A stretch of 64,000 nucleotides of DNA. Source: a virus. Its lineage: Duplodnaviria > Heunggongvirae > Uroviricota > Caudoviricetes. The stretch lies in IMG/VR virus record IMGVR_UViG_2563366977_000001, positions 15,651 through 79,650 of that record. One strand, given 5' to 3'. The notes beneath the pieces were generated by a model that made no database searches, was not told the DNA's origin, and saw only the letters and a list, made by a program, of their open reading frames with translations. This document shows positions 1,285 through 19,880 of this stretch, piece after piece; positions within the stretch are counted from its first letter, which is position 1, and each line of letters begins with the position of its first letter. The position numbers were made by a program, and so were the translations under genes.

Positions 1285-2982
1285 CTACTTTTTTTCGTTG
1301 ATTTGCCCGCTCAACATGTCAATCGCACCTTCTTTCGAACGTGTCAGGCGAAGGCGAGTGAAATAGTTCTCACCGTTGCGCGGATGCACATCGTTGATTG
1401 CTGTACCCCAAAGAGTGGTGCGGTTTACCAGGGCTGGATTTGTTTCGTGGACATACGGAATAGCAGGCACAGCATCACCAGCGACCAGGCCAGCTTTACC
1501 AATGCCTTCGCCACGACCATAGAAGTAGATGTCGTCCAGGCCAAAGTCGTAGCCATGTTCCTGGAATTGTTTGCAGATAGGCTTCGGCACTTCGTAGATA
1601 CGAATGGAACCAAACAGGGTGCCGATGTATTGAATGTACGGCGACTGTACATAGCCCGGTGCCAACTGGAAGTGCTGCGGCGGTAAGGAACGCAGGAAGT
1701 TAGCAGCATCGCCACCAGCAAAGCCACCACGGATACCGGTGGTCAGGGTGCGGTCAGCCATATCCTGTGACAGCGCGTTCACAACATGGCGAATTAAACC
1801 AACCCACGACTCGTAGTTCTGCGCTTCTGGCAGTGCCACATCAAATTCACGACCGTAAACTGTGTGGAATACCAGAGTGCGTAGGCGCATCATATCGATT
1901 TCGTGGGAAATCCAGTTGCGCATTGCGGAAAATTGCAATGCTGCCAGTTCGAGTCCGTGTTCACGGCTCAGGTCAGATGCTGTCATAACCGTATGTTCGG
2001 ATGCGATCACGTACTGCGACGGGCGCAGGGCGTAATTGCGCATGGACTGGTTAATGACTGGTATCAGGTTCGGATTGCGTTCAATGTTGATTTCAACCTG
2101 AACAGCGATTTCTGTACCCTCTGCTGGTGCTGTACCAAATGTGATATCGATAACGCCGGTATCGTATTTAACTTTTGCTGTAACAGAGAAAGAGTTGCCG
2201 TTGACGTCTTTGTCGTTGAAATACAGGTTGCCGTCACCATCATCTACTTTGGACGGTTTGCGGTTAATCAGCAGTTTGTTGTAGCCCTGGCGTAGCGGGC
2301 AGGCCTGGCCTTCGAAGTTCTGGATATCAAACTGGAAGGTGGTTTTGCTGCCATCGCCTTTTTCGGTCAGGATGTACAGGCGTTTCATCTGCGAATACAC
2401 GCCAGCAGACTGCATGTTCAGTTCATCGCCCTGCTCGAATGTACCGAATTTTGTACCAGCAACGTTGGTCAGCTCGTAAATATTGGTTTCATCACGATCA
2501 CAAGGGATAAACGTACATGCGTCGCTGGTGGCTGCACCGAGAGAAGCAGGCAGGATCAGTGCGGCATATTGTGCAACCTTCATTACACCATCGGAGGTGC
2601 GCATGTCCTTGGCTACTGATTCAAACATGGCTTTGCCAGCGCCTTCATGCGTCTCTTTAGCGGACTCCATCATCAGGCGCTCAAGTGCTACATGGGCGTT
2701 GGCTAATACATCGCTTGCCGGATAATGCCCATGCTGGCGTTTGTATTCATGAATAGACATGGCCCAGCTACCAATGATCTGGCGAGCTGCTTCTGGTCCA
2801 ACGCCTTCAAACATTGGCTCTTTCTGGATAGCTTTTTCCAGGTTAGCCATCATCACTTCGTTGTCGGTAATCATGTTACCGGCAGCATCAGTGGTTGGAT
2901 CGACGGTCATAGCCATGACGCTTGCCGCCCGATTCATAATCTCGCGCTCGCGCTTACGAGCTGGCTCAATGTTCTTGTTCAC
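1285..2982 (-). CDS. Major capsid protein candidate (P1 gp23-like)
   Basis: 565-aa ORF; size matches unprocessed P1 major head protein; lies beside the partition region as in P1; no motif proof. Confidence 0.5.
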   Translation of the reverse strand: MNKNIEPARKREREIMNRAASVMAMTVDPTTDAAGNMITDNEVMMANLEKAIQKEPMFEGVGPEAARQIIGSWAMSIHEYKRQHGHYPASDVLANAHVALERLMMESAKETHEGAGKAMFESVAKDMRTSDGVMKVAQYAALILPASLGAATSDACTFIPCDRDETNIYELTNVAGTKFGTFEQGDELNMQSAGVYSQMKRLYILTEKGDGSKTTFQFDIQNFEGQACPLRQGYNKLLINRKPSKVDDGDGNLYFNDKDVNGNSFSVTAKVKYDTGVIDITFGTAPAEGTEIAVQVEINIERNPNLIPVINQSMRNYALRPSQYVIASEHTVMTASDLSREHGLELAALQFSAMRNWISHEIDMMRLRTLVFHTVYGREFDVALPEAQNYESWVGLIRHVVNALSQDMADRTLTTGIRGGFAGGDAANFLRSLPPQHFQLAPGYVQSPYIQYIGTLFGSIRIYEVPKPICKQFQEHGYDFGLDDIYFYGRGEGIGKAGLVAGDAVPAIPYVHETNPALVNRTTLWGTAINDVHPRNGENYFTRLRLTRSKEGAIDMLSGQINEKK

Positions 2983-6014: not shown

Positions 6015-6974
6015 ATGATGCGCATTTTTATCGACGATGGTTCTACCAATATCAAAATGCTGTGGGAACAAGACGGGGAAACTCGAACCCATATCTGTCC
6101 GAACAGTTTTAAACGTGGATGGTCCGCCACATTTGGCGCAGGAAAGCCGTTTAACTACATCATTGATGACGAAAAATATTCATATGACTTGATCTCGCCG
6201 GATGTGCTGCCGACGAATAACGTTGAATGGCAATACAGCCCGCTTAATGTGCTTGCTGTTCATCATGCCCTGCTTACAAGTGGCATTGAGCCTCAAGAAG
6301 TGGAAATAGTTGTCACGTTGCCACTGGCAGAGTTTTATGACGACGACGCACAATACAACATGAAAAATATTGAGCGGAAAAAGGCCAGCCTGATGCGACC
6401 AGTCACCCTTAACAAAGGTCAGGTTTTTACTATCAAAAAAGTGACTGTGCGCCCGGAGTCAATACCCGCAGGGATCGGTCTGTGCGACAGCCTTGTGCCA
6501 GCGCATTCTGTGCTTATTGTTGATCTTGGTGGGACTACTCTGGATGTGTCGATGGTCGCCGGGCAAATGACCGCCGTTTCTCGCGTATTTGGCGATTCTA
6601 ATCTCGGCGTTTCGCTGGTAACTAAAGAGGTCAGACAGGCACTTGCAAAAGCGAATACCGAAACCTCTAATTATAATGTCGATCAATTAATCATTAATCG
6701 TGATGATGAGGATTATTTGACCGACAATATTAACGATCCGTCTGCTATTGATGATGTTAAGAAAGCCATTTCGTCAAGCATAGAACGACTCCGTACACGC
6801 GTACTGGATGTGATCAGTGATTTCAAAGGATACACGCATGTTATGGTCATTGGTGGCGGCGCGCCGCTTGTTGCTGATGCTATCCGTGAGCAGGTAAACA
6901 TTCGTGACGATAGGTTTTTCGTTGCTGATGATCCACAACTTGCTCTTGTCTATGGTCTAAAATCTATCGGTTGA
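6015..6974 (+). CDS. parM: ParM/StbA actin-like plasmid segregation ATPase
   Basis: ORF trimmed to ATG 6015 with GTGGAG RBS; N-terminal IDDGSTNIK motif and DLGGTTLD phosphate-2 motif. Confidence 0.8.
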   Translation: MMRIFIDDGSTNIKMLWEQDGETRTHICPNSFKRGWSATFGAGKPFNYIIDDEKYSYDLISPDVLPTNNVEWQYSPLNVLAVHHALLTSGIEPQEVEIVVTLPLAEFYDDDAQYNMKNIERKKASLMRPVTLNKGQVFTIKKVTVRPESIPAGIGLCDSLVPAHSVLIVDLGGTTLDVSMVAGQMTAVSRVFGDSNLGVSLVTKEVRQALAKANTETSNYNVDQLIINRDDEDYLTDNINDPSAIDDVKKAISSSIERLRTRVLDVISDFKGYTHVMVIGGGAPLVADAIREQVNIRDDRFFVADDPQLALVYGLKSIG

Positions 6975-6984
6975 TGAGGTTGCC

Positions 6985-7350
6985 ATGTCTCAGGAACGTC
7001 GAAAAGTATTGTTTTATCTTCGTCCTGGTCTTAACGCCAGTGAGCAATATGCTGATGCAAAACTTGAGGGCCATCCATTAAGAGATCGCAATGATATGGC
7101 GCGCACAGCGATGCTTGCAGGTATCGCTCTTGGCGAGGTTGATAGCAGATTACCTCCCATGTTGGCATCGCTTTTATCCGGTGATAATAGCCCTGAAGTG
7201 ATCAGAAAAATGCTGGTTTCATTTCTTGAAATTTCGCCTGAAGTTCGGGAAAACCCTGAAGGAAACCCCTCTGCCTCAGCGGATGTTAAAAAACCTGGCG
7301 TTTCGAAAAGCCGCTCTGCACAGAATTTGGCAAACTCACTCCCTGATTAA
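6985..7350 (+). CDS. parR: ParR/StbB-like centromere-binding adaptor
   Basis: 121-aa ORF 10 nt after parM; size and position fit type II partition operon. Confidence 0.5.
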   Translation: MSQERRKVLFYLRPGLNASEQYADAKLEGHPLRDRNDMARTAMLAGIALGEVDSRLPPMLASLLSGDNSPEVIRKMLVSFLEISPEVRENPEGNPSASADVKKPGVSKSRSAQNLANSLPD

Positions 7351-12889: not shown

Positions 12890-13657
12890 TTACCCCATTC
12901 TCAGAGAGGTTTCAGTAATAATTCGTTTCGCGTCCAGCTCCCAGGCGGTGATCACGTCTGCTATAACACTAATTGCCGTTTGTGCAGCATAAATACGCTC
13001 TTCCCCAATTGGGGCTGAAACATCAGTAAAACTGATGTCTTTAGCATCCTGAATCGCGCAGATTAGCGGGACGGGTACTCGTACCAGCGGGGTTGTTGCT
13101 TCAAACTGCGTTCCTGCCATCAAGCGAAGACGTGCTCCTAGCGAATTACACATCAGACTCATGGTCGCCTTATCCGTCGCCATTAACGTAACGTCATACG
13201 TCAGATTTGCCTGGGTGTATTCCAGGGCTACTAAAGGCATACCGCTGCCAGGTTCGCAGAAGTGATCACAGCTTTTGCGGTCTATCTGCTGGTCATTGTT
13301 GATATAGCTGATATCCATTGAGCGCGAGATATTAATCAGAGGGAGCGCATCGCGATTAATGTTCGGATTCTCTGGCTTTCTCCCTTGCCCGGCATTAGCA
13401 CGGCGAACCGCTTTAAGGAACTCGACCGCGTTATCAAAACGGGCAACATAAACACGCTCCGCTGGTGGGCGACTCAGGAATGATGCAAAGCGCCTTTCTT
13501 CTTTTGCTGGTTCCACCAGCGTTACGTCAGAAAAAATGTCGCTGATTAGCGTAGCAAAAGCGTTATCCACTCTTTCCAGACCAGTTGTCTGGAATTTTCC
13601 GGTACGCGTTGTCTGCCACTCGCCAATGCGGGACAGGAGAGTTTTGTTGGGTGTCAT
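12890..13657 (-). CDS. Putative tail/baseplate protein
   Basis: 255-aa ORF in same minus-strand cluster. Confidence 0.3.
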   Translation of the reverse strand: MTPNKTLLSRIGEWQTTRTGKFQTTGLERVDNAFATLISDIFSDVTLVEPAKEERRFASFLSRPPAERVYVARFDNAVEFLKAVRRANAGQGRKPENPNINRDALPLINISRSMDISYINNDQQIDRKSCDHFCEPGSGMPLVALEYTQANLTYDVTLMATDKATMSLMCNSLGARLRLMAGTQFEATTPLVRVPVPLICAIQDAKDISFTDVSAPIGEERIYAAQTAISVIADVITAWELDAKRIITETSLRMG

Positions 13658-14457
13658 TCGATCACTCCGTTTTGAGTGGTATCAAAGTTCCTGGCCGGGA
13701 TGCAGTAATACAGGGAGCCGACGTGTTGTGTTCCGTAGCTGAAGATTCGATGCACGTACCACCAGCGGCGGGCGAGGCCATTCGCCATTTCTTCGTTCCA
13801 TTCCAGGATTGAACCAACAGGTACGTTGTTTGCAGCAATACGCAGGATTAGCACTTCATCAGCAAGACCATCCTGTTCTCCATCGGCATCAATGGCATGA
13901 AACGAATCCCTTCCGTCCGGGTTATCCAGGACGTATACGATTTCCGGTTCCAGATAGGTAAGCTCACGCTGGTTGTTGTCCAGTTGCGTGAAAGACTCTT
14001 CACCTGTTTCATCGTTTACGACGCCATAGGTGCCATCAGCCGGGCGGTATAAAAGCGCCTCGAACGCGTCAGGGCTTGATTCAATAATGAGCATCCAATC
14101 GGCGCGGATCTGGTCGTTGAACGCTTTATGTCCGTTATATCGGGTTTTAAGCTGCTGGTTTGGTTCTCTGTTAGCGAGCGATGCCGGTAGGGGAGCGATG
14201 TCAGGTTCAATCACTTCCGTAACAGAGTCACCAGCATTATCAGGCCAATTATCATGGCTATTAGATTGGGTGGCGGCGTGCTCTTCCAGAATACTGAATG
14301 GCCCTGCACTGACATTCCCATTTTCCGTTGTGCTTCCTTCATTCGCTTCAACCGTCGTTGTCTCTTCTCTCTGCGTGCTGTCATGTTCTGTTCCCTTTCT
14401 CATCAGGCTTGCATCATCAGCAAGCCATTCATCAAAACGGCCCATAAGCGTCCTCAA
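13654..14457 (-). CDS. Hypothetical acidic protein, first gene of minus-strand cluster
   Basis: 267-aa ORF overlapping next gene by 4 nt. Confidence 0.3.
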   Translation of the reverse strand: MRTLMGRFDEWLADDASLMRKGTEHDSTQREETTTVEANEGSTTENGNVSAGPFSILEEHAATQSNSHDNWPDNAGDSVTEVIEPDIAPLPASLANREPNQQLKTRYNGHKAFNDQIRADWMLIIESSPDAFEALLYRPADGTYGVVNDETGEESFTQLDNNQRELTYLEPEIVYVLDNPDGRDSFHAIDADGEQDGLADEVLILRIAANNVPVGSILEWNEEMANGLARRWWYVHRIFSYGTQHVGSLYYCIPARNFDTTQNGVIE

Positions 14458-14608
14458 AGGTCGATTTATCAGGTATCGAAAGGAAGATTTTCGGGAGATT
14501 GTGATTTTGGATGGAGGAGGGGAATTGTTGCAATATGCACTTGCGCACGGTGCAACGGTGCGCTATCATTATGACATTCATTAATAATCATGGAGGATAA
14601 GATGATCG

Positions 14609-14911
14609 ATGAGCAAAAAGATTAACATAAAGAATTTCAGGGATGAGTGGCTTGATGATTTTTTTGAATTTTCAATACCACACAAAAAGATACCTTCTGA
14701 TATTCAGATTACATTGTTGCGGAAGCTGGATATTATCAATGCTGCAACTACTTGGAAGGACTTGAGATCACCACCAGGTAATCGGTATGAGGAATTGTCA
14801 GGGAAGCTAAACGGCTATTCATCAATAAGGGTGAATAAGCAATACAGGTTAATTTTTAAGTGGGTTAACGGAAAGGCCGAGGACTTGTATCTCGACCCTC
14901 ACAAATACTAA
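14609..14911 (+). CDS. higB: HigB-family toxin (plasmid maintenance killer protein)
   Basis: 100 aa; toxin-first arrangement with HTH antitoxin directly downstream. Confidence 0.7.
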   Translation: MSKKINIKNFRDEWLDDFFEFSIPHKKIPSDIQITLLRKLDIINAATTWKDLRSPPGNRYEELSGKLNGYSSIRVNKQYRLIFKWVNGKAEDLYLDPHKY

Positions 14912-14982
14912 AACAAATACCCGGCGGATGGGCCGGGTACTGACCAGAGTCCACTTAATACGCACGCTAGTAAGGGCAAAAA

Positions 14983-15321
14983 ATGAAACAGGCAACCAGA
15001 AAACCGACGACTGTAGGTGATATCCTGCTGTACGAATACCTGGAGCCGTTAGAGCTTAAGATCAACGAGTTAGCAGAAATACTTCATGTTCATCGTAACA
15101 CCGTAAGTGCTCTTGTTAATAATAATCGTAAGCTAACGATGGATATGGCATATCGCCTGGCAAAAGCATTCGATACTTCTGTAGATTTTTGGATTAATCT
15201 TCAGACCGCAGTAGACCTGTGGGAAGTCGAAAATGATATGCGCGTTCAGGAAGAGTTAAGTCGTATCAATACTGCTGAAAAATTTATTTCTCAGCGGAAC
15301 CTGAATAAAAAAGCAGCCTGA
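14983..15321 (+). CDS. higA: HigA-family antitoxin (XRE-type HTH)
   Basis: 112 aa with HTH (ELAEILHVHRNTVSALVNN) and HigA-like C-terminus. Confidence 0.7.
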   Translation: MKQATRKPTTVGDILLYEYLEPLELKINELAEILHVHRNTVSALVNNNRKLTMDMAYRLAKAFDTSVDFWINLQTAVDLWEVENDMRVQEELSRINTAEKFISQRNLNKKAA

Positions 15322-15340
15322 TATAGTAAAACACATACAA

Positions 15341-15366
15341 AAAGCCCACTTAACAAGTGGGCTTTC
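15341..15366 (+). terminator. Hairpin terminator after higA
   Basis: AAGCCCACT-TAACA-AGTGGGCTT stem-loop followed by T-rich tract. Confidence 0.5.
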
Positions 15367-15377
15367 CTTTGGAATTA

Positions 15378-15738
15378 ATGAACATTAAACCTATCCGTAC
15401 AGAACAAGATTATGAGGCCGCACTGCGTGAAGTCGAACCGATGTTCGATAACGAACCGGAAATGAATACCCCGGAAGGTGATTTCTTTGAGGTCATGTGT
15501 CTTCTCATTGAGGAGTACGAGAAAAAACATTATTCCAATTGAGCCACCATCACCTATTGAAGCCATTAAGTTCCGTATGGAACAGCAAGGGCTGACCGTG
15601 AAGGATCTGGAACCGGCTATTGGTAAATCAAATCGTGTTTACGAGGTGCTAAATGGGACACGAAATTTGACGTTACCTATGATTCGCCGTTTACATTCCC
15701 AGTTTGGCATTCCTCTTGAAAGCCTAGTTGGTGTTTAA
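15378..15738 (+). pseudogene. Second HigA-like HTH antitoxin gene split by a 1-nt frameshift in an A6 tract
   Basis: ORFs 15357..15542 and 15478..15738 together resemble one HTH antitoxin; they differ by +1 frame at GAGAAAAAACATT (about 15521-15533). Confidence 0.45.
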
Positions 15739-15799
15739 GTTTGGCGGTCTGGATGACCGCTTTTACCAAAAGTAAAGTTAAGAAGGTTTGATTGTTTAT

Positions 15800-16537
15800 A
15801 TGAGCAAAGATTCATCATTAGAAAATAAAGATGAAAATATCACTGTCAAGAATACAATCGAAGAAGCCATTAGAGACAAGTTATTTAATAAGTTGTTTGC
15901 ATATGTTGTGGTTTCTTTTTTTGTCGTTAACTGGCAGGATATTTTCATTTTATTTAAATCAAAGTACGATATATATACGACATTATCTATAGTATGGGTA
16001 GGTGATGAGTATAATATCCCCTTTTTGCCATCATTCATTTTGCCACCATTTGTAGCTCATTTTGTCATGCCATTTATATATGGCACTGTTGCGTCTGTTA
16101 TTATACCTTATGTTACGTTGTTTATATCGAAAGCCACAGGTAGAAATTATGCAAGGATACGATATCTTGATTATGAATTTGATTTGAAAGAGAAAGCCAA
16201 AATAGAAGATTTAATGTTTGATCTGCGTAGCAAAGAAAGCGCCAGATTAGATTTGGATGCAGCAATAGAGGAGAGAATAAAATCATTAAGTGCAATCGAC
16301 TCTAAGAACAAAGAGCTTCTGGACGACAGAGTTGCTTTGTTCGAAGGCATAAAAGCGATAGTGGATGTATATACAGAAAAAAATAAAAGAATCTCCTCGC
16401 CTGAAGATTTTGTTGATTTATTAAAGGCTGTGGAAAGAACTGATTTTTATAAGGATATTGGTTTGTCTGGCATAAATGATTTAATAGCTGATTTAAAGAA
16501 TACTTACGAAGACATACTTAAACCCATGTCCGACTAA
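15800..16537 (+). CDS. AT-rich two-TM membrane protein with cytoplasmic coiled-coil domain (defence/exclusion candidate)
   Basis: Two hydrophobic helices then charged helical C-terminal half; very low GC relative to flanks; own terminator. Confidence 0.5.
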   Translation: MSKDSSLENKDENITVKNTIEEAIRDKLFNKLFAYVVVSFFVVNWQDIFILFKSKYDIYTTLSIVWVGDEYNIPFLPSFILPPFVAHFVMPFIYGTVASVIIPYVTLFISKATGRNYARIRYLDYEFDLKEKAKIEDLMFDLRSKESARLDLDAAIEERIKSLSAIDSKNKELLDDRVALFEGIKAIVDVYTEKNKRISSPEDFVDLLKAVERTDFYKDIGLSGINDLIADLKNTYEDILKPMSD

Positions 16538-16545
16538 CGCTTAAA

Positions 16546-16563
16546 AGGCGGATTTTCCGCCTT
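16546..16563 (+). terminator. Hairpin terminator (GGCGGATTTTCCGCC)
   Basis: Stem-loop immediately after stop of the membrane protein gene. Confidence 0.5.
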
Positions 16564-16630
16564 GCTTTGATGACTTTGATGTAAAACATTTTTTCAGCTA
16601 TTTGAACACCATGATGGTGTTATTCGTGAT

Positions 16631-17110
16631 TTGTCATTTCTTGATGCTCATCAGGCTGTGTTTGTTCAGCAACAAGAAGGAAAGCAACCGATAGAGTATC
16701 GCTTTTGGGTTACGTACTCTTTTCACTGCTTCACAAAAGACTATGCACACCAGACTGAGGAAGAGAAACTGGCGTTAATGTACCACGCCCCTAAAGAGTC
16801 TCGTCCATTTTGTGAGCGTCGCTATAATCTTGCCAAACTTCACTTAAAAGAGGCAATTCTGTCATTGTCGGAAGGTAAGGTGATCCATGCCGGATACGGA
16901 AGCTATGCCGTTATTGAGGTAAATATTGGGGAGGGTAACAAGGAGTATTATTTTGTTGCGTTTAAGGCTTTCAGGGAAAAGAAAAAGTTGCGGTTACACA
17001 TCACTAGCGCCTACCCGGTATCAGAAAAACCAAATGGCAGGTCAGTGAAGTTTTTCGCAATCGCATACAATCTGTTAAGGAACAAACCGCTTCCTAAGCC
17101 ACCAAAATAA
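16631..17110 (+). CDS. Hypothetical protein, independent cargo unit
   Basis: 159-aa ORF followed by hairpin AAAGCCCACCTTAAGGTGGGCTT at about 17111-17133. Confidence 0.4.
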   Translation: MSFLDAHQAVFVQQQEGKQPIEYRFWVTYSFHCFTKDYAHQTEEEKLALMYHAPKESRPFCERRYNLAKLHLKEAILSLSEGKVIHAGYGSYAVIEVNIGEGNKEYYFVAFKAFREKKKLRLHITSAYPVSEKPNGRSVKFFAIAYNLLRNKPLPKPPK

Positions 17111-17335
17111 CAAAGCCCACCTTAAGGTGGGCTTCGCCAGAAATTATTTTCTGGTATTCAGAACGCCATTACCGGACTTTGCCTTGACCAAGTATCACAA
17201 CAGGCTTGACCTGTTATGATAGCTGGTTGCGGGATGTCTGAATTTCTTCAGTCTGCTGCATCCTCGAAGGTTTGGTTCAACATGTACCATTCCTTCACCG
17301 TCATAATAGTGAACTATTCACGTCCTTACAAACAC

Positions 17336-18541
17336 TTATACATTTTTTACGTTGTTCTTCACATACGCCATGAACATCTTTTCGGCTTGTGCTGGTGGTG
17401 TTCCTGCCATAACAAGCGCGTCAATGAACGCCTGCTTCTTCAGTGCGAACTGGTCAGCAAGACGTTGCTGAAGTTCCTTGTTTTTCTGCTTCTCCCGTTG
17501 CAAAGCAGCTTCTTTTGCCGCTGCCCGTTTTTTCTGTGCGTCGGATAACTTTCTGGCCCTCGTCAGTTGGTCGCGCAGCTTGTCGATCTTACCGTTGTCC
17601 TTTGCCAGTTTTGAGCTTAAAGCGGCCTGGCGTTTCTGATAGAGCTTCCATTCACGTTTAGCTGCCTCAACATTCGTTTTGCTGCTACGGTTTCGATTGA
17701 ACGCCTTCTCGTCTTCTTTTGTGAAGTGTTTTGTCGTGCGGCGGCGATCGTCACCAAAGGCAACTTGCGTTGCAGCTTTTTGCAGGGCGCGAGCAATACT
17801 CATCTGCCAACTGGCAGACTGTAGTCGTGTCATTGAGTGGATCACATGTTTACAGGCGACGCCTTGCAGCTTAGGGTTGCGAACTTTTGGATAGGCGTAT
17901 TCTTTTGGCGGGGCCAGGGCAAAGTTACCCGCAGTGGCGATGTAGCGATACCAGTATTGATGGCGACCGCAGTCACAATCGAAAGACACTCGCCCGGCAC
18001 ACAGTGATTTTGTGACTTTCAGGGCTGATTTATCGTCTTCTGCGATGTCATCGACCATCTGATCCCATTCTTCAAAACGTACCCGGACAATGTGGTGCTG
18101 GTGAACGGATATATCGGACGCTTCCACGCGGATATTAATCACATTGTGACGAAGAGATACGGGCGTAGCTCTTTTGATACCAGAACCGTCGTCTACGGCG
18201 TTATTTGCTCGCTTAATATCGATAGCCTGGCTGGACGCTACCAGTTGTGCGTATGTAATGCCAGCCGTCTTGCTGTCGTATTTTTCGCGTGCTTTGCTTC
18301 GCAGCTTTTCGAAGCCTTTCAGATCGTCACGCGTAAAGAACGTGCCGCCTTTCTTTTTCCCCAGCTTAAGAATGTCTTCGGCTGATTTATTCCTAAGCCT
18401 GCCCGGCGTGAGTGTCCTGTGCGCCTGGCGGCGTTTGCGGTTTTGCTCTTTCCTGATGAGTTCAAATACGCGTGTGAAATCCTTAGAGGACAGGCCGTCA
18501 GTGATATATCGCCCGTCCTGATTTTTCAGGAAGTCAGGCAT
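17336..18541 (-). CDS. SWIM zinc-finger protein with lysine/arginine-rich coiled-coil tail
   Basis: C-x-C-x(n)-C-x-H pattern (FDCDCGRHQYW ... CKHVIH); C-terminal K/R/Q/A-rich helical region. Confidence 0.5.
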   Translation of the reverse strand: MPDFLKNQDGRYITDGLSSKDFTRVFELIRKEQNRKRRQAHRTLTPGRLRNKSAEDILKLGKKKGGTFFTRDDLKGFEKLRSKAREKYDSKTAGITYAQLVASSQAIDIKRANNAVDDGSGIKRATPVSLRHNVINIRVEASDISVHQHHIVRVRFEEWDQMVDDIAEDDKSALKVTKSLCAGRVSFDCDCGRHQYWYRYIATAGNFALAPPKEYAYPKVRNPKLQGVACKHVIHSMTRLQSASWQMSIARALQKAATQVAFGDDRRRTTKHFTKEDEKAFNRNRSSKTNVEAAKREWKLYQKRQAALSSKLAKDNGKIDKLRDQLTRARKLSDAQKKRAAAKEAALQREKQKNKELQQRLADQFALKKQAFIDALVMAGTPPAQAEKMFMAYVKNNVKNV

Positions 18542-18955: not shown

Positions 18956-19237
18956 TTATGCGTGTGAAAATAATGGACGGATGTTTGGGCGAGCGGTTTG
19001 CGAAGCAACCCAAAGCTCATACTGGGATTGCATACCGGTCCACATTTCGGCACTGGTTCCAAGAGCGGACTCCAGACGAAGTGCCATATCAGCGGAAATA
19101 CCTGTTTTTTCGTTCAAAATTCGGGAAAGTGCCGTGCGAGTAATGCCTAATGCAGCAGCGGTGTCTGTGACTGATATGTCTCCCAAATATTCACGAAGAA
19201 CCGCGCCTGGATGCGCGGGATTATGCATACGACTCAT
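18956..19237 (-). CDS. HigA-family HTH antitoxin-like protein (third gene of a TA operon)
   Basis: 93 aa; [21 protein letters not shown]; start overlaps upstream antitoxin stop (ATGA). Confidence 0.6.
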
Positions 19238-19533
19238 ATGTGGAAAGCAACCCGTTTACCGGTTGGCAATTCAACGTCCAGACTCAACTTCCCACCCATA
19301 GCCTCAACGTAACGTTTAAGCGTTGCCACTTTCAAGTCATTGCCTCGTTGTTCAAGTTTTGTGATGGCTGGTTGACTAATTCCCATCGCATCGGCAACTG
19401 TTTTTTGTGATAACTGAAGCTCCTCTCTCAACATCTGCAATCCGACTTCCAGAATCATTTCATCAGCCTGCTCTTTGATACGAGCTTGGCTTTCAGGGGA
19501 TTGCGCAGCAATAACTTCTCTTAGAGTTCTCAT
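19234..19533 (-). CDS. XRE-family HTH antitoxin
   Basis: 99 aa; [24 protein letters not shown]; overlaps toxin stop. Confidence 0.65.
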
Positions 19534-19880
19534 TATTTTTTCTCAAGTTCTGCAAGATGGTTGGAAAATTCGTCGTCTGCAATCCGTATCATTCTTTCGT
19601 AGAACTTTTTATCGTTACTTTTATCTCCGGCGCACAGGATTATGGCTTGCCTTACCGGATCAAATGCGAAGAATGCTCTGATAGGGCGACCAGCGTACTG
19701 AATCCGTAACTCCTTCATGTTTTTATGGCGTGAGCCTTTAACTGTGTCGGCATATGGCCTTGATAATGAAGGGCCATATGTTTCCAGATTGATCAGGTCA
19801 ACCAGGATTTTTTCTTTTAATGCAGGTTCCTGTTCCTGGAACCATTCATCAAAAATTTTTCCAAAATAAATTTGCCACAT
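19533..19880 (-). CDS. RelE/ParE-superfamily toxin (phage Gp49-like / HigB-like)
   Basis: 115 aa; conserved KELRIQYAGRPIRAFFAF...IILCAGDK pattern typical of Gp49-like toxins. Confidence 0.7.
   Translation of the reverse strand: MWQIYFGKIFDEWFQEQEPALKEKILVDLINLETYGPSLSRPYADTVKGSRHKNMKELRIQYAGRPIRAFFAFDPVRQAIILCAGDKSNDKKFYERMIRIADDEFSNHLAELEKK

Follow-up and report, generated by a model that had tools for sequence, protein, structure and literature searches.

A composite accessory island in the tail operon of a D6-like phage-plasmid: a putative inner-membrane protein gene beside a truncated yjaZ-like gene and its SroH-like sRNA

Imm of phage T4 is one of the inner-membrane proteins that confer superinfection exclusion. 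Type I toxin-antitoxin (TA) loci, e.g. par/fst RNA I-RNA II of plasmid pAD1, form convergent transcripts that share a bidirectional terminator. The gene yjaZ was formerly called htrC, the original 'heat-shock' label having been retracted, and SroH is an E. coli sRNA that has been known for 20 years. A moron, in the sense of Juhala and Hendrix, is extra DNA that one phage carries at a site where its relatives have none; a deviant GC content, an own promoter, an own terminator and expression from the repressed prophage are further criteria (PMC3594210). The HK97 protein gp15 is encoded by a moron within the tail operon and is an inner-membrane exclusion protein (Cumby et al. 2012, reviewed in PMC3594210); its N-terminus is conserved, its C-terminus has diverged, and homologues occur in chromosomes (PMC3594210). 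Another prophage-encoded inner-membrane protein is P22 SieA, whose types share one locus in spite of being less than 30% identical, and show no difference in target specificity (PMC10883804). The higBA genes of D6 have been treated as a post-segregational killing system (PMC6799933).

The DNA analysed here (the window) is a stretch of 64,000 nucleotides of the IMG/VR virus record IMGVR_UViG_2563366977_000001. Its host element is a D6-like, P1-family E. coli phage-plasmid, and P1-type phage-plasmids are frequently carried by clinical E. coli and Salmonella. In P1, the late operon has the gene order 26-25-7-24-6-5, and genes 25 and 7 are separated by 3 nt. In the window, the tail-gene operon is interrupted between the homologues of these two genes, assigned via the D6 annotation, by an accessory island in reverse orientation, the features of which are listed in Table 1. 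An initial annotation had described the distal end of this island as an AT-rich cassette of two independently acquired morons. Both open reading frames exist, ORF1 with an ATG start and 245 aa and ORF2 with a TTG start and 159 aa, and the sharp drop in GC content was also confirmed (0.31-0.35 over positions 15600-16600 versus approximately 0.50 in the flanking tail genes). Calculated by gene, the GC content is 0.327 for ORF1, 0.431 for ORF2 and 0.50 for the gene 7 and gene 25 homologues, the value for the whole window being 0.476.

Compared with related elements, the region is an ordinary moron island. P1 has only the 3-nt gap at this site, D6 and P31_YH1 carry the ORF1 type only, and pEC361_3 carries the yjaZ type only; both genes deviate in GC content. 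As for an own promoter, none is recognisable for ORF1, and the native promoter of ORF2 has been lost. The promoter-like matches across the region (10) were not above the number found in shuffled sequences (7.7 +/- 2.6), and a search upstream of the gene 7 homologue, with ≤1 mismatch allowed, yielded no P1-type late-promoter -22 box. The earlier view of independent morons thus stands as regards the low-GC accessory DNA and the separate occurrence of ORF1 and ORF2 in relatives, but ORF1 is not an independent unit of the island, being the last gene of a HigB/HigA block.

Table 1. Features of the island and their positions in the window.
Feature	Position	Strand	Remarks
Composite accessory island	14609-17335		ORF1/ORF2 region is the distal end
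higB toxin gene, first in island	14609..14911	+	Pfam PF05015 HigB-like_toxin, E=1.2e-34; PHROG 3066
higA antitoxin gene, 112 aa, HTH_3	14983..15321	+	Pfam PF01381, E=7e-11; PHROG 1381
HTH119 pseudogene, frameshifted second HigA-like HTH protein	15375..15738	+	
Hairpin between HTH119 stop and ORF1 start	15743..15765	+	GGCGGUC-UGGAU-GACCGCU plus UUUU
ORF1, 245 aa, probable 2-TM inner-membrane protein	15800..16537	+	PHROG 8191
Hairpin after ORF1	16545..16563	+	8-bp stem AAGGCGGA/UCCGCCUU, weak U tail (GCUUUG)
Fusion scar, 16 nt (AAACATTTTTTCAGCT)	16584..16599	.	3' end remnant of a different gene-25 allele
5'-truncated yjaZ-like gene	16600..17110	+	Listed ORF2 is 16631..17110, TTG start, 159 aa
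SroH-like sRNA gene, full length, convergent to yjaZ-like gene	17112..17297	-	Rfam RF00372
SroH terminator stem-loop	17113-17134		U tract on minus strand
Sigma-70-like promoter match for SroH-like RNA	17303..17331	-	TTGTAA-17-TATTAT, 9/12; consensus match only

The product of higA is 100% identical to D6 orf71, and the PHROG that it matches bears the label 'plasmid antitoxin with HTH domain'. The gene that follows, HTH119, has an intact counterpart in D6 (orf72, 119 aa). In the DNA alignment with D6 and P31_YH1, the window has an extra T at approximately 15533-15534 (CATTATTCC versus CATTA-CCC), which shifts the frame, and truncated HTH119 calls recur in independent assemblies. All loci in which HTH119 follows a PF09907 HigB have an intact copy of it; in ten other loci it is C-terminally deleted, and no HTH domain is left in L027, L029-35 and L039. 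Among the neighbours, only the HTH119 fragments gave a PADLOC match, to the N-terminus of PD-Lambda-2_B. The hairpin behind HTH119 (-13.3 kcal/mol, z -2.9) did not register as a terminator in the scan, and it is kept with compensatory changes across D6-like alleles.

ORF1 begins approximately 35 nt 3' of this hairpin with the ATG at 15800 (the mechanical open reading frame begins at TTG 15788), and no sigma-70-like site is found from the hairpin end at 15765 to the ATG. The protein matches PHROG 8191 with E=1.5e-107; other, weakly related PHROGs were also found, none with an annotated function. No match was obtained in Pfam or NCBIfam, PADLOC-DB v2.0.0 gave no family for either ORF1 or ORF2 at E≤1, and the PDB sequences searched with the ORF1 profile gave noise only. 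Among 1.8 billion representatives, a deep profile search detected 72 relatives, none of which is annotated; the Pfam matches and the PADLOC matches (LmuB, JetC) of distant relatives were rejected as coiled-coil artefacts. No homology to a characterised exclusion or defence protein was therefore detected in PHROG, Pfam, NCBIfam, PADLOC, PDB or BFVD.

By the Kyte-Doolittle scale, ORF1 has two hydrophobic segments, at residues ~30-52 and ~80-110, the cytoplasmic sides of which are flanked by positive residues, and a charged tail of 134 residues with 23 K/R and 30 D/E. Structure prediction, one of the checks proposed in the initial annotation, returned an AlphaFold model with one unbroken helix from residue 83 to 193, but the AF2 model is poor (pLDDT 65, pTM 0.28, from a 13-sequence alignment), with a pLDDT of 35-56 over residues 1-90, i.e. 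the membrane part, and Foldseek of the model against BFVD gave nothing below E=0.06. Because of the poor membrane part, the topology was taken from hydropathy and the positive-inside rule only; according to these, ORF1 is probably located in the inner membrane with both termini inside (N-in/C-in) and a long cytoplasmic helix, the C-terminus being modelled as a small helical bundle. The two TM segments and the long charged tail initially described are thus retained, but the coiled coil is less certain: the heptad analysis (hydrophobic a/d occupancy 0.52 versus a background of 0.42) lends weak support to a canonical one. The long helix is the fastest-evolving part of the protein, and such segments drift quickly under weak constraint. 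The hairpin after ORF1 (-12.6 kcal/mol, z -3.5, none of 200 shuffles being as stable) lies below the criteria of the scan for a plus-strand intrinsic terminator, and a different hairpin occupies the same place in most ORF1-family alleles.

A gene of the ORF1 type fills the slot in nearly all D6-like elements sampled, and the identical protein is encoded on at least 24 contigs. The D6 gene orf73 (ASR76396.1; PHROG 8191), annotated only as a hypothetical protein, is a true ORF1 homologue with the same position, length and architecture, but as a deeply diverged allele it has 36% amino acid identity overall; the literature on D6-like prophages mentions higBA and not orf73. The first 105 nt of the ORF1 gene still lie within a 91.8%-identical DNA match to D6, which, unlike the window, has an intact HTH119 and no yjaZ-like/sroH-like module. 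Mean pairwise identity among alleles is 73% in TM1, 58% in the loop, 55% in TM2, 27% in the central helix and 36% in the C-terminal bundle. Despite a C-terminal identity of 18-27%, the architecture is kept in intact alleles of approximately 242-259 aa, and 27 positions are invariant across eight diverse members of the family.

For pairs of ORF1 alleles, NG86 gave omega values of 0.2-0.4 at dS 1-2.5; when the same pairs of elements were compared, dS was 1.0-2.4 for ORF1, 0.08-0.69 for gene 25 and 0.11-0.26 for HTH119. In the C-terminal half, where dS is saturated and NG86 therefore unreliable, no positive selection was detected: omega was below 1 (0.2-0.6) in all pairs for which dS is defined, and hence there is no sign of positive selection on a recognition surface of ORF1. 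Within the lineage of the window, all three ORF1 differences are synonymous. Two alleles look decayed, one split into two frames (L023) and one truncated (L038), so the gene is presumably dispensable for the phage. These comparisons show ORF1 to be a functional single gene under purifying selection, and show alleles that are ancient and have been shuffled by recombination into much less diverged backbones, which is what population genetics would lead one to expect of a conflict gene. It is highly improbable that ORF1 has no current function and hitch-hikes through its linkage to the addiction module. The two decayed alleles, the lack of a known domain and the lack of an identified promoter would agree with such a passenger, but not the low omega over saturated synonymous distances, the maintenance of length, architecture and invariant positions, or the persistence of relatives in four other genera.

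The relatives outside phage-plasmids include solitary genes in Enterobacter, flanked by asr and an M32 peptidase gene, and in islets of Serratia and Citrobacter beside lysS-prfB-recJ, the Serratia islet adjoining an orphan CdiA-CT/CdiI pair. These genes bear on two further explanations. As ORF1 closes the HigB/HigA(-HTH119) block in every one of the >30 D6-like loci with this gene, always directly 3' of the HigB/HigA-type module and on the same strand, it could be a third component of the upstream TA operon, e.g. a membrane effector or toxin held in check by the HigA-like HTH119, that adds to plasmid addiction and not to phage exclusion. The same order is found with three HigB/HigA combinations, including that of the divergent element L024, ORF1 has no evident separate promoter, and the killing function ascribed to D6 higBA (PMC6799933) would also agree. 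However, ORF1 is intact and under apparent purifying selection where HTH119 is frameshifted, deleted or without its HTH domain, a hairpin with a U run lies between the two genes, and the strict co-occurrence of intact HTH119 with the PF09907 HigB fits an antitoxin of that toxin. Moreover, neither a TA nor an HTH gene adjoins the relatives in Enterobacter, Serratia, Citrobacter and Dryocola. The decay of HTH119 beside a persisting ORF1 and the existence of solitary chromosomal relatives led us to downgrade this explanation, which we consider unlikely.

The same chromosomal genes, which lie outside prophages, argue against a role of ORF1 in the phage life cycle, be it in lysis timing, as a holin/antiholin-like protein or as an accessory of tail or baseplate assembly. 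Such a role might be suggested by the small size and membrane location of the protein, by its position among tail and baseplate genes in almost all D6-like elements, and by one of 53 relatives that matches a 'hol-like' PHROG (E=1.8e-4). Nevertheless, ORF1 is transcribed opposite to the late operon, its GC content is far below and its allelic divergence far above that of the structural and tail genes, and it is missing from P1, P7 and pEC361_3-type elements, which retain the same tail genes. We therefore regard a life-cycle function as very unlikely.

For ORF2, the initial annotation had found no assignable motif, which holds for ORF1 in Pfam, NCBIfam and PADLOC but not for ORF2. This protein matches the NCBIfam family NF007263 (YjaZ) with E=4e-87 and 290.7 bits (cut-off 324) over profile positions 21-179, and carries a precomputed assignment to Pfam PF27200. 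Relative to its intact 179-aa counterpart in pEC361_3, ORF2 has lost 9 codons together with the native GTG start and the AAGGAG RBS; the alignment between the window and pEC361_3 yjaZ begins only at approximately 16596, and an in-frame stop is located at 16577. The missing N-terminus holds the nearly invariant residues F11, D20 and L21, and all three substitutions within the lineage are nonsynonymous, one of them at a nearly invariant Tyr. Judged by these alignments, ORF2 is a YjaZ homologue, but a truncated and not an intact member of the family, and in place of a working cassette we see a remnant without start signals that is most likely non-functional. Low-level translation from the TTG at 16631 may occur.

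The hairpin that had been read as the private terminator of ORF2 belongs to a gene on the other strand. Directly after the yjaZ-like stop at 17110, a minus-strand match to Rfam RF00372 (SroH) ends at 17112, the two genes being abutting and convergent as in K-12. The match is not truncated (113 bits against a gathering threshold of 80, E=6e-27, model positions 1-161 of 161). Both hairpins of the initial annotation fold more stably than shuffled sequences (z -3.5 after ORF1 and z -4.5 for the plus-strand fold at 17113-17134), but neither reaches the level set for a plus-strand intrinsic terminator. The second one lacks a plus-strand U tract, while on the minus strand it folds with -22.3 kcal/mol (z -6.0) and is followed by UUUU. 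The promoter-like site is placed for a start at approximately 17297, which agrees with the 5' end of the Rfam match. The sroH-like gene is thus predicted to be intact, with a promoter-like site and a terminator. A more general lesson is that a 'private terminator' read from the sequence alone may be a gene on the other strand.

In the K-12 locus as analysed, yjaZ occupies 1441..1980 and SroH runs from 2142 to 1982. A chromosomal yjaZ-sroH locus, approximately 77% identical, is present in approximately 69% of complete E. coli genomes, and the pairing recurs in six other loci. The analysis showed yjaZ-sroH to be a conserved, mobile protein-sRNA pair that ranges from E. coli to Aeromonas. YjaZ and SroH, two orphans, would each gain a concrete and testable partner, with which they travel jointly on mobile elements across two bacterial orders.

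The slot between genes 25 and 7 has two alternative contents, type A, i.e. higB-higA-(HTH119)-ORF1, and type B, i.e. the yjaZ-like gene with a convergent sroH-like sRNA gene. In the window, a 16-nt sequence between the two (Table 1) exactly matches the gene-25 3' end found beside the ORF1 alleles in L003, L019, L021 and L027, whereas the gene-25 3' end of the window itself differs from it. Eight independent assemblies show the same junction. This scar shows that the island arose by fusion of the two types, and the comparison with pEC361_3 shows that the fusion deleted the promoter, the RBS and the first 9 codons of the yjaZ-like gene, which is the reason why ORF2 is most likely a dead remnant. 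We have high confidence in this structural and evolutionary account of the island.

If ORF2 is a pseudogene, the active part of the second cassette could be the SroH-like sRNA, an extra copy of which may modulate host envelope physiology, or the yjaZ-sroH locus of the host, in the lysogen. This is consistent with the full-length Rfam match flanked by a promoter-like site and a terminator, with a yjaZ-like gene that has no expression signals and accumulates nonsynonymous changes in the sublineage, with the frequent chromosomal yjaZ-sroH locus of E. coli, and with the reported sensitivity of an sroH deletion to envelope stress (PMC5389530). On the other hand, the sample of substitutions is tiny, and the sRNA gene may have survived merely because the deletion struck the other end of the module. 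We consider an active sRNA possible but doubtful.

A more far-reaching reading would make yjaZ-sroH, in place of a housekeeping gene with an orphan sRNA for a chance neighbour, a single mobile, two-part TA-like or conflict module, in which YjaZ, with a RelE/HigB2-like core, is paired with a convergent, terminator-sharing sRNA. The module would move among chromosomes, conjugative plasmids and phage-plasmids in hosts that range from Enterobacterales to Aeromonas, the window would have kept the RNA partner after loss of the 5' end of the protein gene, as orphan antitoxins are kept, and ORF1 would represent a new family of membrane exclusion proteins, each encoded by a single gene, the alleles of which set exclusion specificity. 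The sequence-profile searches for such a toxin were negative: when the YjaZ alignment was compared by hhalign with two HigB toxins, the probability stayed below 2%, and a PDB profile search with YjaZ returned no toxin. A type I TA system was rejected as well, as YjaZ has 180 aa and no hydrophobic segment, and only the shared terminator overlaps. Duplex energies between SroH and the yjaZ translation-initiation region were not better than those of shuffles (z +0.35 to +1.2) in a crude test with RNAduplex and mononucleotide shuffles. We regard this combined reading as rather improbable.

The explanation that we favour for ORF1 is a role in conflicts between phages, namely that of a membrane-based exclusion protein. 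ORF1 would be transcribed in the lysogen, either from the autoregulated higBA promoter, with read-through into ORF1, or from a promoter that escaped recognition; lysogenic expression is an assumption here, because no promoter was found. The protein might block genome entry of a superinfecting phage, in the manner of HK97 gp15 and P22 SieA, or it might collapse the membrane once its cytoplasmic tail senses infection, i.e. act by abortive infection. An exclusion function is proposed tentatively, and the two modes appear about equally probable. Taken together, the best explanation of the whole island, exclusion role included, is one that we put forward with reservation, as nearly evenly balanced. 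If ORF1 does exclude phages, it would represent a new single-gene, membrane-based family among prophage-encoded defences, and the at least six deeply diverged natural alleles would make the mapping of specificity by allele swaps straightforward.

Among the known systems, the closest chromosomal counterpart of the second cassette is the K-12 yjaZ-sroH locus, with which ORF2 and the downstream 186 nt are colinear at approximately 77% nucleotide identity. In both cases the genes are convergent and share a hairpin, and 1 nt separates the yjaZ stop from the 3' end of SroH. Unlike in K-12, the yjaZ-like gene of the window is 5'-truncated and an additional hairpin is formed by a 21-nt insertion in the SroH-like gene; the module lies on a phage-plasmid here and between rpoC and thiH in K-12. 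The pair also resembles par/fst in combining a protein gene with a convergent small RNA that overlap at a bidirectional terminator, and in being mobile, plasmid-borne and patchily distributed, whereas YjaZ is a 180-aa soluble protein that is not known to be toxic, and not a small hydrophobic peptide. With regard to ORF1, no homology to P22 SieA was detected, and SieA blocks the ejection-protein conduit of P22-like podophages, a mechanism for which a P1-like myovirus offers no evident equivalent; nevertheless, the SieA types parallel the ORF1 alleles, which are 18-27% identical in the C-terminal half. HK97 gp15 is a far smaller protein than ORF1, with a single TM, and its gene has a promoter and a terminator of its own; ORF1, with two TMs and a 134-residue helical tail, has no sequence similarity to it. 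An exclusion phenotype has been demonstrated for gp15 and is proposed for ORF1. Yet both belong to accessory DNA of deviant GC content in a tail operon, both are small inner-membrane proteins (as predicted for ORF1) with a conserved N-terminal membrane part and a diverged C-terminus, and both have homologues in enterobacterial chromosomes outside prophages.

The phage closest to the window was Escherichia phage D6, a P1-like plasmid prophage (91.8% identity across positions 14404-15904). In P1, genes 26-25-7-24-6-5 form a single late operon with a gap of 3 nt between genes 25 and 7, and because of this spacing the plus-strand block found between the minus-strand gene 7 and gene 25 homologues of the window must be an insertion that splits the late operon in the opposite orientation. 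From left to right, the block contains higB (PF05015), higA, HTH119 (a second HigA-like HTH gene, coding for 119 aa in D6), ORF1, ORF2 and a minus-strand sRNA gene. Both ORFs of the initial annotation were recovered, together with the drop in GC content that it described (0.31-0.35 across 15600-16600 versus about 0.50 for the flanking genes; ORF1, 0.327; ORF2, 0.431; whole window, 0.476). The region has six terminator-like sites, versus 2.6 +/- 1.5 for shuffled sequences. Three GC-rich hairpins with U tracts on the minus strand were observed in the island. These three would halt late transcription from the gene 26/25 side ahead of genes 7-24-6-5, which share one P1 operon with genes 26 and 25; a search for a P1-type -22 late-promoter box upstream of the gene 7 homologue found none. 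A second small accessory block, located between the gene 26 and mat homologues, encodes two HTH_3 proteins (93 and 99 aa) and a Gp49/DUF891 protein (115 aa, PF05973), looks like another HigB/HigA-type toxin-antitoxin set, and is found in some window-type relatives only (e.g. locus L009).

Coordinates of features in the window and in related loci (L-numbers)
Feature	Locus	Coordinates	Strand
P1 gene 7 homologue (island flank)	window	13654..14457	minus
Inserted block	window	14609-17335	plus
GC-rich hairpins, minus-strand U tracts	window	14916-14941; 15339-15367; 17108-17139	
HTH119	window	15375-15738	plus
Hairpin-to-start spacing, ORF1 family	window	15743-15800	
Hairpin-to-start spacing, ORF1 family	L043; L046	~6950-7001 (each)	
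ORF1 (ATG, 245 aa)	window	15800..16537	plus
Gene 25 remnant	window	16584-16599	
ORF2 (TTG, 159 aa)	window	16631..17110	plus
SroH (RF00372), full length	window	17297->17112	minus
SroH terminator stem-loop	window	17113-17134	minus (U tract)
Sigma-70-like match	window	17331->17303	
P1 gene 25 homologue (island flank)	window	17336..18541	minus
Second accessory block	window	18956-19880	minus
SroH	L047	1982-2142	
SroH	L002	4516-4701	
SroH	L048	3045-3218	
SroH	L052	3083-3262	
SroH	L054	3051-3213	
SroH, partial (Raoultella)	L051	3042-3125	
Slot of Raoultella element	L051	2501-5145	
ORF1-like islet, Serratia marcescens	L040/L041	5398-8065	
ORF1-like islet, Citrobacter freundii	L043	6673-8140	

A tblastn map of 39 related loci indicates that the slot is a hotspot whose gene content varies from element to element. 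Four layouts were distinguished: (i) higB(PF05015)-higA-HTH119-ORF1 family, seen in D6, in P31_YH1 and in numerous IMG/VR contigs; (ii) higB(PF09907)-HTH119-ORF1 family; (iii) a yjaZ-like gene, either by itself (pEC361_3) or with umuDC (a Raoultella element); and (iv) that of the window, where ORF1 and the yjaZ-like gene are both present. In the Raoultella P1/D6-like element, the slot after the gene 7 homologue holds the yjaZ-like gene, a partial sroH and a umuD/umuC-like pair. Neither the 5,426 complete E. coli genomes searched nor PLSDB contained the window layout. HTH119 is intact in every locus with a PF09907 HigB ahead of it; in PF05015 layouts it is intact in some and cut to its first 65 residues in ten, and D6-like lineages other than that of the window have lost its HTH half. 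In the window type, a single extra T at about 15533 shifts the HTH119 reading frame, and since independent NCBI, ENA and Logan assemblies have the same frameshift, a sequencing error is not the cause. HTH119, whose fragments match the N-terminus of PADLOC PD-Lambda-2_B, thus looks like an orphaned antitoxin, decaying once its toxin gave way to the PF05015 higBA pair.

The initial annotation could assign no motif to either protein, which does not hold for ORF2, a member of the YjaZ family (NCBIfam NF007263, E = 4e-87; precomputed Pfam PF27200). Its NF007263 score (290.7) lies under the equivalog cut-off of 324, as ORF2 lacks the first 20 profile positions; these include the nearly invariant F11, D20 and L21 and cover two short beta-strands in a structure modelled with confidence (pLDDT 90, pTM 0.86). 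Identity of ORF2 to the yjaZ-like gene of pEC361_3 (179 aa) begins only at about 16596, and the ORF1 3' end and its hairpin stand in place of the native GTG start, AAGGAG RBS, promoter region and first nine codons (MSQEVEKWR). Upstream of ORF2 there is an in-frame stop at 16577, with no ATG or GTG and no RBS and with the ORF1 hairpin close by; depending on the gene caller, one and the same sequence yields 159 aa, 162 aa or no gene. We regard ORF2 as an assignable but truncated yjaZ. The 16 nt just before the junction (AAACATTTTTTCAGCT) exactly match the 3' end of the gene 25 allele that follows ORF1 in loci L003, L019, L021 and L027; gene 25 of the window itself has a different 3' end. This scrap and the loss of the yjaZ 5' end show that two island types were joined: a type (i) island, carrying a piece of the neighbouring gene 25, underwent illegitimate recombination with a type (iii) island, with the breakpoint inside yjaZ. 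Eight independent loci share exactly this junction. In one window-type sublineage, all three ORF2 substitutions are nonsynonymous, one of them at a nearly invariant Tyr, and all three ORF1 substitutions are synonymous; these numbers, although small, suggest that ORF2 is dead and ORF1 alive.

Each ORF had been proposed to end in a private hairpin terminator. Stable hairpins do follow both (z of -3.5 and -4.5 against shuffles), but by the criteria of the terminator scan none qualifies as an intrinsic terminator on the plus strand, and the one after ORF2 is instead the terminator of an intact convergent SroH gene (Rfam scan, 113 bits versus a gathering threshold of 80, E = 6e-27), with a sigma-70-like match, TTGTAA-17-TATTAT, at the expected promoter position. 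In E. coli K-12, SroH is likewise convergent to yjaZ, 1 nt past its stop, and the chromosomal pair occurs in about 69% of complete E. coli genomes. All yjaZ homologues examined have a full-length SroH gene, or a partial one in Raoultella, convergent to and 1-21 nt from their stop; among them are those on Enterobacteriaceae plasmids that also have conjugation-related genes close by (112 bits), on a Pantoea plasmid (89 bits) and on the chromosome of Aeromonas hydrophila (74 bits, E = 2e-15). The SroH alignment has conserved blocks, with compensatory changes in three hairpins. Because the pairing recurs on E. coli and Aeromonas chromosomes, plasmids and phage-plasmids, yjaZ-sroH looks like one conserved, mobile protein-sRNA module; to our knowledge, the linkage has not been described beyond the K-12 adjacency. 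SroH was no more complementary to the yjaZ initiation region than shuffled controls were. An sroH deletion has been reported to be envelope-stress sensitive (PMC5389530), one SroH target was demonstrated by EMSA (PMC6172242), and the distribution of SroH within E. coli is patchy (PMC3318445). The mobile pair is one of two leads worth bench time, the other being the ORF1 allele series.

ORF1 matches PHROG 8191 (function unknown; E = 1.5e-107), with no match in Pfam, NCBIfam or PADLOC. Its small family comprises 17 clusters at 90% identity, every one of them from E. coli or Salmonella contigs some 90 kb long, and a profile search of 1.8 billion representatives retrieved 72 relatives of 200-380 aa in six PHROGs, all unannotated. 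The proposed two-TM protein with a long coiled coil was upheld as to two hydrophobic segments (hydropathy, about 30-52 and 80-110) and a long helix, whereas heptad periodicity is weak; in a low-confidence AlphaFold model (pLDDT 65) the second segment extends as an unbroken helix up to residue 193, and a small helical bundle comes after it. The first segment has positive residues on its N-terminal side and the second on its C-terminal side (KATGRNYARIRY), an arrangement that favours an N-in/C-in topology and a periplasmic loop of 27 residues.

D6-like elements with flanking proteins 96-100% identical carry ORF1 alleles that share 36-70% identity. Nei-Gojobori estimates for ORF1 (dS 1.0-2.4, dN 0.12-0.64, omega 0.2-0.4), with dS far above that of gene 25 (0.08-0.69) and HTH119 (0.11-0.26) in the same pairs, indicate old alleles, each maintained in working order by purifying selection and recombined among much younger backbones; against D6, one breakpoint lies about 105 nt into the gene. 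That ORF1 lacks a function is on these values very improbable. Omega never exceeded 1 in pairs with estimable dS. Mean pairwise identity falls from TM1 (73%) through the loop (58%) and TM2 (55%) to the central helix (27%) and C-terminal bundle (36%). Such a fall is typical of specificity or conflict determinants, and long helices also drift fast; the gradient fits a determinant of this kind and is not proof of one.

Its place behind higBA and HTH119 would suit a third component of the toxin-antitoxin operon. However, HTH119 decays, and ORF1 relatives stand alone in chromosomal islets of Enterobacter (between asr and an M32 carboxypeptidase), Serratia, Citrobacter and Dryocola, where the small upstream ORFs are not HTH proteins; this argues against an obligatory partner, and we consider the three-component reading unlikely. 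A phage life-cycle role, which residence among late genes might suggest and solitary chromosomal relatives do not, seems less likely still. In Serratia and Citrobacter, distant ORF1-like genes of 354-379 aa share an islet adjoining lysS-prfB-recJ-dsbC-xerD. The Serratia islet also has an orphan CdiA-CT (RNAse_A_bac) and CdiI_2 pair beside the ORF1-like gene, which suggests a conflict-gene hotspot. Most ORF1 alleles have their own, non-homologous hairpin directly past the stop, so that, for ORF1, this part of the private-terminator proposal is a family trait. In D6-like elements, Citrobacter and Dryocola, the ORF1-family start lies 35-40 nt after an upstream terminator-like hairpin; a standard promoter would not fit into this space, and expression may rely on read-through of the terminator or on an unusual promoter.

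Taken together, the observations of the initial annotation were confirmed in part and its interpretation was supported in part: the island is real and a fairly ordinary moron-type one, and ORF1 is not an independently acquired unit but a stable, allelic resident of a toxin-antitoxin-linked island. We are highly confident of this structural and evolutionary account. More tentatively, the reading of its function that we favour is that ORF1 may be a lysogen-expressed inner-membrane protein acting against other phages, through a block of genome entry or through abortive infection, the conserved membrane hairpin being the putative working part and the variable cytoplasmic tail the interaction surface. 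No homology of ORF1 to HK97 gp15 or P22 SieA was found, and these closest documented parallels are functional analogies only. HK97 gp15 is a moron located inside a tail operon; its product is an inner-membrane protein whose N-terminus is conserved and whose C-terminus is diverged, and it has homologues on chromosomes (PMC3594210).
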